Shown here: in pieces, positions 157 to 401 of the stretch
How positions within the stretch are numbered: position 1 is the first letter of the stretch
Layout: every line of letters starts with the position of its first letter
Virus record (IMG/VR): IMGVR_UViG_2534681835_000032
Span: 1-14,811 of that record
DNA length: 14,811 nt
Source: a virus
Lineage: Duplodnaviria > Heunggongvirae > Uroviricota > Caudoviricetes
Direction: 5' to 3' (one strand)
The notes under the pieces: model-generated
Database searches by the model: none
What the model was told of the DNA's origin: nothing
Seen by the model: only the letters and a program-made list of their open reading frames with translations
Translations under genes and position numbers: made by a program

Positions 157-371
157 AGCCTGCTTCTCCTTGCCTTTCGGCGCGTAAGAGGCTAACCTAC
201 ATGTGCAAGTCATAGATATGGCCTCAGATTAATGTTAAGCGTCTTGCCGGACGCGTAATGTTAACTGGGGCTTTTCTCTATCTGCCGTTGGTGTTCATGC
301 CCGAGGCAGATAGCCTCAAGCACCCGCAGCAATTCTACTTAACTCTCGCTTTACCGCAAACCGTTTTTACC

Positions 372-393
372 CGATATGGGAATTCCCATATCG
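372..393. promoter_or_regulatory. Perfect 22-bp palindrome CGATATGGGAATTCCCATATCG (candidate protein-binding site or RNA hairpin)
   Basis: Perfect dyad symmetry read directly from the sequence; lies between a small ORF and the hok leader; no flanking U-run on either strand, so not a canonical intrinsic terminator. Confidence 0.3.
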
Positions 394-401
394 TAATGAA
401 T

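Follow-up and report, generated by a model that had tools for sequence, protein, structure and literature searches.

KilA-N genes are widespread in phages and prophages but poorly understood, and they include genes for abortive-infection proteins of the BstA type. The KilA-N domain, a relative of fungal Mbp1, is predicted to bind DNA, and BstA has at its N-terminus a KilA-N(-like) domain of putative DNA-binding function (Owen et al. 2021, PMC8585504). BstA co-localises with phage DNA that is being replicated and prevents the phage from replicating; on its own prophage it is inactivated by aba, a short element of the bstA locus that works as DNA, with each BstA variant having its cognate aba (PMC8585504). 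The aba of BstA-BTP1 is a non-palindromic element of 63 bp that carries direct CCCGCC repeats at its termini and lies at the start of the gene (PMC8585504). Here we describe a 22-bp palindrome beside a hok gene of an E. coli prophage and relate it to a symmetric element that occupies one position within many KilA-N genes.

The window analysed here, a stretch of 14,811 nucleotides, shares 100% identity with a lambdoid (Rac-like) prophage integrated between yebY and pphA in E. coli 2014C-3061. At positions 372-393 it contains the palindrome CGATATGGGAATTCCCATATCG, in which two 11-nt arms are 100% complementary, follow each other with a spacer of 0, and meet in a central EcoRI site (GAATTC). A preliminary description of this DNA had reported the perfect inverted repeat and its central EcoRI site, and its sequence and coordinates are exact. 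Its view that the repeat is unlikely to arise by chance agrees with our simulations: 372-393 is the longest of the spacer-free palindromes of the window, and an arm of at least 11 nt appears in about 1% of 1000 first-order Markov simulations. No second copy with up to three mismatches is found within the window. The palindrome is predicted to fold into a hairpin with a 9-bp stem and an AAUU loop (-14.5 and -13.9 kcal/mol as RNA, -8.6 and -8.2 kcal/mol as DNA), with a z of about -4 for RNA folding on either strand. The palindrome equals its reverse complement, and both strands therefore give the identical hairpin. The stem has only three G-C pairs, all at the loop end, and is AU-rich outside this GGG/CCC segment. 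A T-run lies 5′ of the palindrome on the plus strand (364-368) and no U-run follows the hairpin on either strand, both as previously described, and Rfam gives no family match at 372-393, whether at gathering thresholds or at E-values up to 10.

The genes around the palindrome lie on the minus strand in the order DUF551 (622-1170), ORF1 (a hydrophobic small ORF of 27 aa, 542-625), ORF2 (likewise hydrophobic, 34 aa, 402-506, annotated as WP_001278450.1), the palindrome, and the hok unit. The last of these comprises the hokD toxin gene (51 aa, 1-156, annotated as WP_000813260.1), an overlapping mok-like ORF that reaches position 213, and the hok mRNA leader/sok region (151-325), which matches Rfam RF01794 over its full length (108.4 bits, E 2.5e-24). 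Transcription of hok would start at about 325, where position 1 of RF01794 aligns, and a putative minus-strand promoter at 332-360 can be read from the sequence, with a candidate -10 element TAGAAT at 332-337 and a candidate -35 element TTTGCG/TTGCGG at 354-360. A promoter scan is silent on this assignment because only eight of 12 consensus positions match. Relative to the predicted start, the palindrome spans about -47 to -68 (centre ~-57.5); it lies 11 nt upstream of the putative -35, from which an A-tract separates it, and on its other side the ORF2 stop codon ends 9 nt before it on the minus strand. The palindrome had been placed where the hok promoter or leader and a Sok-like RNA would be expected. 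Its nearness to the promoter stands, but since the RF01794 model ends at 325 and the -35 is assigned to 354-360, it would lie upstream of the promoter, outside both the leader and the Sok region. ORF2 and the palindrome together form a 175-bp block between two minus-strand copies of the 11-bp direct repeat GGGTAAAAACG, one at 362-372, overlapping the last G of the palindrome, and one at 537-547, at the end of ORF1.

To relate the palindrome to hok loci in general, we sampled 80 such loci from IMG/VR by their Hok protein alone, so that the sample is independent of the palindrome. Fourteen carry it, 13 in intact form and one, L302, in decayed form. The intact copies are divided between the arrangement of the window (type B, seven loci) and the arrangement of PPompW, in which the palindrome lies downstream of the paa adhesin gene (type C, six loci). 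Among the other loci, 22 belong to type A, in which, as in Stx2 phage I, ORF1 is joined directly to hok, its stop codon abutting the hok promoter, and the block of ORF2 and palindrome is missing; 21 have an ORF2 homologue followed by hok with no palindrome (type D); six have another junction, again with no palindrome; and 17 lack the -10 motif used as an anchor. The preliminary description had linked the palindrome to the hok leader and proposed a search at hokD-like loci in other prophages; with 66 of the 80 homologous loci lacking it, that link fails. The palindrome is likewise absent from hokD of K-12/BL21, from Stx2 phage I, and from strain VL7S7. At the scale of complete E. coli genomes, hokD-like DNA is found in 4765 of 5426, and its homology to the window mostly ends at 344, 368, or 372; the palindrome sits just beyond the conserved edge of the hok module. 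Where hok loci do carry it, its distance to the -35 is 10, 11, or 29 nt, and this variation argues against a fixed operator-promoter geometry. At least five different distal flanks and two different hok-side joints abut the dyad, and in one hok locus (L023) the palindrome follows an ORF6N gene at a distance of 16 nt. By these comparisons of sequence the palindrome is no component of hok/sok, and the copy in the window probably has no direct role in hok control.

The same dyad recurs far from hok. A 19-mer taken from the palindrome matches at least 120 IMG/VR loci in a scan that, being exact, favours perfect copies of the dyad; among the matches listed, about 35 have no hok nearby, and these fall into about 20 unrelated contexts. 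An arm-swapped control palindrome gives a single match. In a set of bacterial genomes with one genome per species, the exact 19-mer occurs at 89 loci, against about four estimated by chance, and these loci are spread over Nostocales, Bacteroidota, Rhizobiales, Dehalococcoidia, Brachyspira, Spirochaetia, Bacillota, Xenorhabdus/Photorhabdus, and others, in genomes whose G+C ranges from 0.27 to 0.70. Forty-one of the 89 lie inside KilA-N ORFs (Pfam PF04383, E 1e-19 to 1e-27). The position of the dyad within these genes is constant, between the sequences …LKTTxxFLxELS and …KGG..QGTWVHP, where the 22-mer encodes DMGIPIS. The 22-mer of the window is identical to the dyad both in E. coli KilA-N/BstA-like genes and in KilA-N genes across phyla; it is open in all reading frames and is found within genes and between genes, with multiple copies per STEC genome. 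Searches of the full-text literature and of Rfam return no description of a KilA-N dyad, literature searches that combine KilA-N with palindrome or EMSA return nothing relevant, and a full-text search for GGGAATTCCC returns NF-kB papers only. A position-specific, symmetry-conserved dyad in KilA-N genes is thus apparently undescribed.

Arrays of distinct perfect dyads also occur in some genomes: L226 has four inside 180 nt, and in L274 two abut each other. Such an arrangement suggests that the dyads themselves are used as sites.

Several observations bear on what is conserved at this position. A Bacteroidota subfamily of KilA-N proteins reads the same 22-mer in another frame, as RYGNSHI (in the context E-R-YGNSHI-A), at the homologous position. 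Among more distant KilA-N genes there are perfect variants whose two arms have changed in matched fashion, including CCGATGCGGGAATTCCCGCATCGG (encoding DAGIPAS), TCGAAACGGGAATTCCCGTTTCGA (ETGIPVS), and TCTATGGGAATTCCCATAGA (SMGIPID). A scan that fixed the GGGAATTCCC core and the downstream QGTW yielded 45 distinct sequences, across which the 9-10-bp helix of the dyad has a covariation score of 0.222, compared with 0.124±0.012 for shuffles, none of 500 reaching the observed value, and with at most 0.09 for slid partners; these controls correct for phylogeny and codon constraints only in part. One pair of the helix is UA in 22 of these sequences, CG in 21, and unpaired in two, and at least ten symmetric arm haplotypes occur. 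In a sample chosen independently of the dyad, by the protein motif QGTW…W..SP only, 42 of 90 distinct KilA-N genes (47%) have at least nine of ten complementary pairs at the dyad spot; control regions taken from these genes reach this level in 0 of 109 cases, and a good dyad is lacking from about half of KilA-N genes. Only seven of the 90 contain the GGGAATTCCC core, and the remaining dyads diverge in sequence, in loop, and in encoded peptide (for example, CCGTTAGGCAGAAATGCCTAACGG and TTGGATGCTGCAAATGCAGCATCCAA). The frequent variants of close enterobacterial alleles affect the 4 nt at the centre: GGGGATTCCC, the commonest, is found in 45 of 70 and breaks perfect symmetry at the centre, while AATC is found in two.

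The mismatches in near-perfect dyads, counted on the coding strand, are G:T in 20 cases and A:C in 25, and a further count gives six G:T against 23 A:C. A sense-strand RNA helix is unsupported by this spectrum. That the 22-mer merely reflects a chance choice of codons for a conserved DMGIPIS is ruled out by the second reading frame, the compensated variants, and the dyad-independent sample. Since the dyad is read in a second frame, has compensated arms, and shows G:T and A:C mismatches about equally often, what is conserved is symmetric DNA, neither the peptide nor the sense-strand RNA. The pattern fits conservation of symmetry at the level of DNA, or of a hairpin that would matter on either strand, although palindrome-templated mutation, rather than selection, could be the source of the compensated changes. 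On balance, we consider it likely that the dyad is a functional DNA-level site in KilA-N genes.

Neither the window nor the rest of the prophage contains a KilA-N or bstA gene, but the plus strand at 373-408 reads DMGIPIS, then two stop codons, then IQF, against DMGIPISELIQSF in KilA-N genes; the decayed continuation of the frame occupies 394-408 and includes a second EcoRI site at 398-403. At the same place PPompW prophages read SE*IQF and L023-type hok loci read S-GLI*PVKAP, while L302 keeps 26 recognisable KilA-N codons together with a decayed dyad. Over the 30 nt after the dyad, the anchored identity to KilA-N genes is 0.67 in L023, 0.53 in PPompW, and 0.47 in the window, where the signal is short, weak by itself, and below the null 99th percentile of 0.50. 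By tblastn, the window has no KilA-N homology beyond about 15 nt past the dyad, and no KilA-N similarity is found on the hok side. Synteny provides a second line of evidence. A related prophage of E. coli 7/2 has the gene order ydaV, DUF1627, DUF977, a hypothetical gene, a KilA-N gene (→), hok (←), DUF1367, DUF1364, DUF1133; its intact KilA-N gene holds the same dyad and is divergent from hok, and its hok sequence is homologous to the window up to the -10. Thus both flank similarity to the KilA-N frame and an intact gene syntenic with hok are found, and both favour a relic, a reading that draws on the series of better-preserved relics and on synteny, not on the flank in the window alone. Because no intact KilA-N ORF is left and DMGIPIS with two stops and IQF is all that remains of the frame, the dyad in the window is classed as an orphan, and 372-393 is very probably a copy left by a lost KilA-N gene.

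In related Rac-like prophages the KilA-N gene is divergent from its neighbour hok and lies at this very location, with the replication genes on one side and the Q-like gene on the other. We propose that such a gene was once present here too, and that its 5′ half was lost up to the edge of the dyad and its 3′ part from about 15 nt beyond it. The predicted hok promoter region now abuts one edge of the palindrome, and a small ORF follows the residual frame on the other. The palindrome is present in 972 of 5426 complete E. coli genomes (about 18%), with about four sites per O157:H7 genome, given that each site appears to be reported on both strands. Most genomes with orphans are STEC, while the KilA-N allele that we detect is found in 137 E. 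coli genomes, mostly of other pathotypes, and for this reason a pairing of orphan and KilA-N gene in the same genome is not evident.

The position of the palindrome invites explanations that tie it to nearby transcription units. A regulator bound at about -57 could make it a hok promoter operator or a Sok-related element, and the location of its centre and the A-tract between dyad and -35 would suit such a role; but the absence of the palindrome from most sampled hok loci and from K-12 hokD, the shifting distance to the -35, its location outside the hok module and the Rfam model, and the many hok-free contexts of the dyad make this very improbable. The earlier proposal of an operator or RNA element therefore survives in part: a dyad bound by a protein is reasonable, whereas the tie to hok/sok is lost, the palindrome lying outside the RNA model and the conserved module. 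Its hairpin lies directly 3′ of a stop codon, as would an intrinsic (Rho-independent) terminator of the upstream early genes, yet there is no U tract on either strand, a terminator scan of the window makes no call at 372-393, the stem is AU-rich outside GGG/CCC, and the identical sequence lies within intact ORFs elsewhere. An element found in the middle of KilA-N ORFs can be no strong terminator, and this reading is scarcely credible, in agreement with the earlier statement that the palindrome is not a standard terminator. Slightly better placed, though still quite unlikely, is an RNA stem-loop in the minus-strand early-operon transcript, serving to stabilise or process the 3′ end downstream of ORF2, or as an insulator that keeps read-through RNA apart from the hok mRNA, for whose folding the exact 5′ end is important. 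The hairpin is stable on either strand and closely follows the stop of ORF2 here and ORF6N in L023, the stem changes in KilA-N genes are compensated, and the common variants of close alleles fall in the 4-nt loop; against this stand the missing U tract, terminator call, and Rfam family, both mismatch counts, and the absence of the palindrome from most hok loci.

Two further explanations concern the history of the DNA. The orphan may be a neutral leftover of the lost KilA-N gene, its symmetry owed to the youth of the hok-linked copies, to homogenising recombination between lambdoid prophages that share a host, or to palindrome-templated repair. A leftover origin is supported by the flanks and synteny, and the contexts of the E. 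coli orphans share at least 87-93% identity with one another; as these copies are all closely related by recent descent, the fact that they are perfect says little in favour of a function. Some orphans have lost 1 nt or have a shortened distal arm, and L302 demonstrates that an orphan dyad can decay. Neutrality sits less easily with a comparison of types B and C, which differ at 0 of 22 positions in the palindrome but at 9-11 of 44 in flanks of equal size (hypergeometric p about 0.01-0.02), with orphans that, across many independent contexts, retain the whole dyad but hardly any other part of the gene, and with the arrays of several different perfect dyads. A purely neutral relic is possible but somewhat doubtful. 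Alternatively, and compatibly with the other readings, a hairpin- or cruciform-prone dyad could be a recombination or deletion hot spot, where breakage or strand slippage would create mosaic joints at the dyad edge and carry the dyad along, so that it would mark a junction rather than act in gene expression. The variety of distal flanks and hok-side joints at the same dyad agrees with this, as do the many orphans in which KilA-N homology ends, on one side, at the edge of the dyad and the GGGTAAAAACG repeat that bounds the block of ORF2 and palindrome and touches the dyad with one copy. A palindrome of 22 bp is, however, short for efficient cruciform formation or SbcCD-type processing, a small set of closely related KilA-N genes has no mosaic breakpoint at the dyad, and conservation of the dyad within KilA-N genes would be left unexplained; we regard a hot spot as unlikely. 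Our preferred reading remains that 372-393 is an orphan of a dyad that probably serves as a site in KilA-N genes. That the orphan itself functions as a KilA-N site or decoy is a tentative suggestion, about as probable as a functionless relic, and the explanation as a whole, as a compromise across origin, site function, and orphan function, has in our estimate about an even chance of being right.

What might recognise such a site is suggested by the genes that contain it. The dyad-bearing gene of E. coli combines a KilA-N domain with a BstA C-terminal, abortive-infection-like domain, as in the KilA-N/BstA-like protein WP_000200358.1 of strain 7/2. The enterobacterial dyad-bearing proteins match PHROG 6287 'BstA' over their full length (E 2e-83), and the PADLOC BstA model matches their C-terminal half (E 3.5e-21). 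The dyad is present, too, where a KilA-N domain is joined to a different C-terminal domain. The palindrome of the window lies outside any bstA gene, whereas the in-gene copies elsewhere lie in BstA-like genes. In BTP1 bstA the homologous codons form no dyad, and the N-terminal sequence differs. Identity of the dyad with the published aba is rejected, as sequence, symmetry, and position differ and BTP1 has no dyad.

Given these associations, the dyad is most likely recognised by a KilA-N dimer, for which it would be a putative site, either as duplex DNA or as an extruded hairpin, giving self-recognition within the gene. By analogy with aba, the orphan at 372-393 might still bind or titrate a matching KilA-N/BstA-like protein from another prophage, and such a decoy would let the prophage replicate in cells that produce a KilA-N/BstA-like protein with the same arm sequence. 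A bolder version, which we think rather unlikely, would make the dyad the cognate DNA ligand of canonical KilA-N domains and a portable, sequence-variable 'identity tag' that silences a KilA-N/BstA-like protein on self DNA, as aba does, with orphans as captured anti-defence decoys. Suppression of a cognate protein by such DNA would have indirect support in the conservation of the dyad at the level of DNA rather than RNA. An O157:H7 genome would then hold about four decoy copies, one beside each hok, and an array of dyads that differ in their arms would form a decoy island of multiple specificity. The Roi protein of phage HK022 binds a site within its own nin-region gene. As a lead to the present element Roi was rejected: it is of the Rha-N/KilAC type, and a search of the HK022 nin region at up to three mismatches finds no copy of the palindrome.

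For the locus itself, the analysis removes a hok-operator or Sok-related annotation as wrong and explains a mosaic joint that is found in about 18% of complete E. coli genomes, with several copies per STEC genome. More generally, a large fraction of KilA-N genes has a symmetric DNA element at one fixed position, and its symmetry is kept even at the expense of peptide and frame. If KilA-N domains do recognise the dyad, the targets of BstA-like proteins and a code of cognate self-immunity become testable, and orphan dyads would represent a simple, DNA-only anti-defence device.

Among known elements, Rickettsia palindromic elements and REP-type repeats resemble the dyad in lying both in and between genes, in multiple copies, and in being open in all frames, but the dyad is far shorter and is bound to one position of one domain family. 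We see no sign of a dedicated transposase for it, and the KilA-N-like flanks on orphans suggest gene decay rather than transposition. Rho-independent terminators and intercistronic stabilisers share with the dyad of the window a stem-loop just past a stop codon; the dyad differs from terminators in having no U tract, in being strand-unspecific, and in occurring identically inside intact ORFs. The elements of hok/sok (Sok, mok, and the tac/fbi pairing) are also structured, and the dyad is adjacent to them, 47 nt upstream of the predicted hok start, yet it lies outside the RF01794 region and outside the conserved module and is missing from most hok loci. With the dyad-symmetric operators of phage and bacterial repressors, which are bound by homodimers and measure ~16-24 bp, it has in common a length of 22-24 bp, a variable centre, and clustering in some genomes; unlike them, it lies in the middle of a coding region rather than at a promoter, and it keeps its symmetry although its sequence is hypervariable from one homologue to the next. 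The comparison with aba is the closest in context. Whereas aba is a 63-bp element at the gene start with direct repeats, the dyad is palindromic, lies mid-gene, and has a putative function; both are short cis DNA elements in the coding region of a KilA-N(-like) prophage defence gene, and just as each BstA variant has its own cognate aba, dyad sequences differ between KilA-N genes.

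The palindrome at 372-393 and the small ORF beside it lie within one block of the window. An 11-bp direct repeat, GGGTAAAAACG, is present at 362-372 and at 537-547, and its two copies flank a 175-bp segment that contains ORF2 and the palindrome, with one of the copies touching the palindrome itself. This block is missing from type A hok loci such as that of Stx2 phage I, in which ORF1 is joined directly to the hok promoter, and the repeat pair looks like the scar of an insertion or deletion. ORF1 (542-625, 27 residues) and ORF2 (402-506, 34 residues) are very small, hydrophobic minus-strand reading frames a short distance upstream of hok. 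No significant Pfam or PHROG family is assigned to either of them, ORF1 giving sub-threshold matches only, and their products may be small membrane peptides or additional toxins. Homologs of ORF2 are also found upstream of hok at loci that are free of the palindrome.

The identical palindrome, over 22-28 bp, occurs in Bacteroidota KilA-N genes (loci L205, L212, L230, L262, and L286), where it sits at the homologous site within the KilA-N domain and is translated in another frame, as ER-YGNSHI-A. The PPompW prophages L004 and L005 carry, within 1501-1536, a 24-bp version, CCGATATGGGAATTCCCATATCGG, which follows the paa/adfO adhesin gene at a distance of ~120 nt and precedes hok. Clusters of dyads belonging to this family are present at L226 (2528-2704), L274 (4455-4496), L284 (1935-1996), and L076 (around 13856-13915). 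Each cluster comprises two to four differing, individually near-perfect dyads within 20-180 nt, and these mostly do not fall within recognizable KilA-N genes. The control palindrome with swapped arms, TTCCCATATCGCGATATGGGAA, has one exact match in IMG/VR (L127, 4510-4531), whereas far less than one match is expected by chance.

Three or four dyads that share GTAACGC…GCGTTAC arms are present elsewhere in the window (4254-4272, 4459-4481, and 4652-4672; also 4230-4273) at a spacing of ~200 nt. By annotation, they are located within the cro-like and ydaT genes, adjoining the immunity region, and they may serve as prophage-switch operators. Rfam matches mark RalA, the antitoxin RNA in the RalR/RalA pair (12465-12643), a tandem of isrK and C4 antisense RNA (6980-7168), and, where prophage and chromosome meet, SraC/RyeA with SdsR/RyeB (14205-14349). 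The chromosomal neighbors on either side of the prophage are yebY and pphA.

An intact KilA-N/BstA-like gene is present in E. coli strain 7/2 (L559, 3353-4774), where it occupies the nin region and is divergent from a Hok/Gef gene. This site differs from that of bstA in phage BTP1, whose reported position is cI-proximal (PMC8585504).
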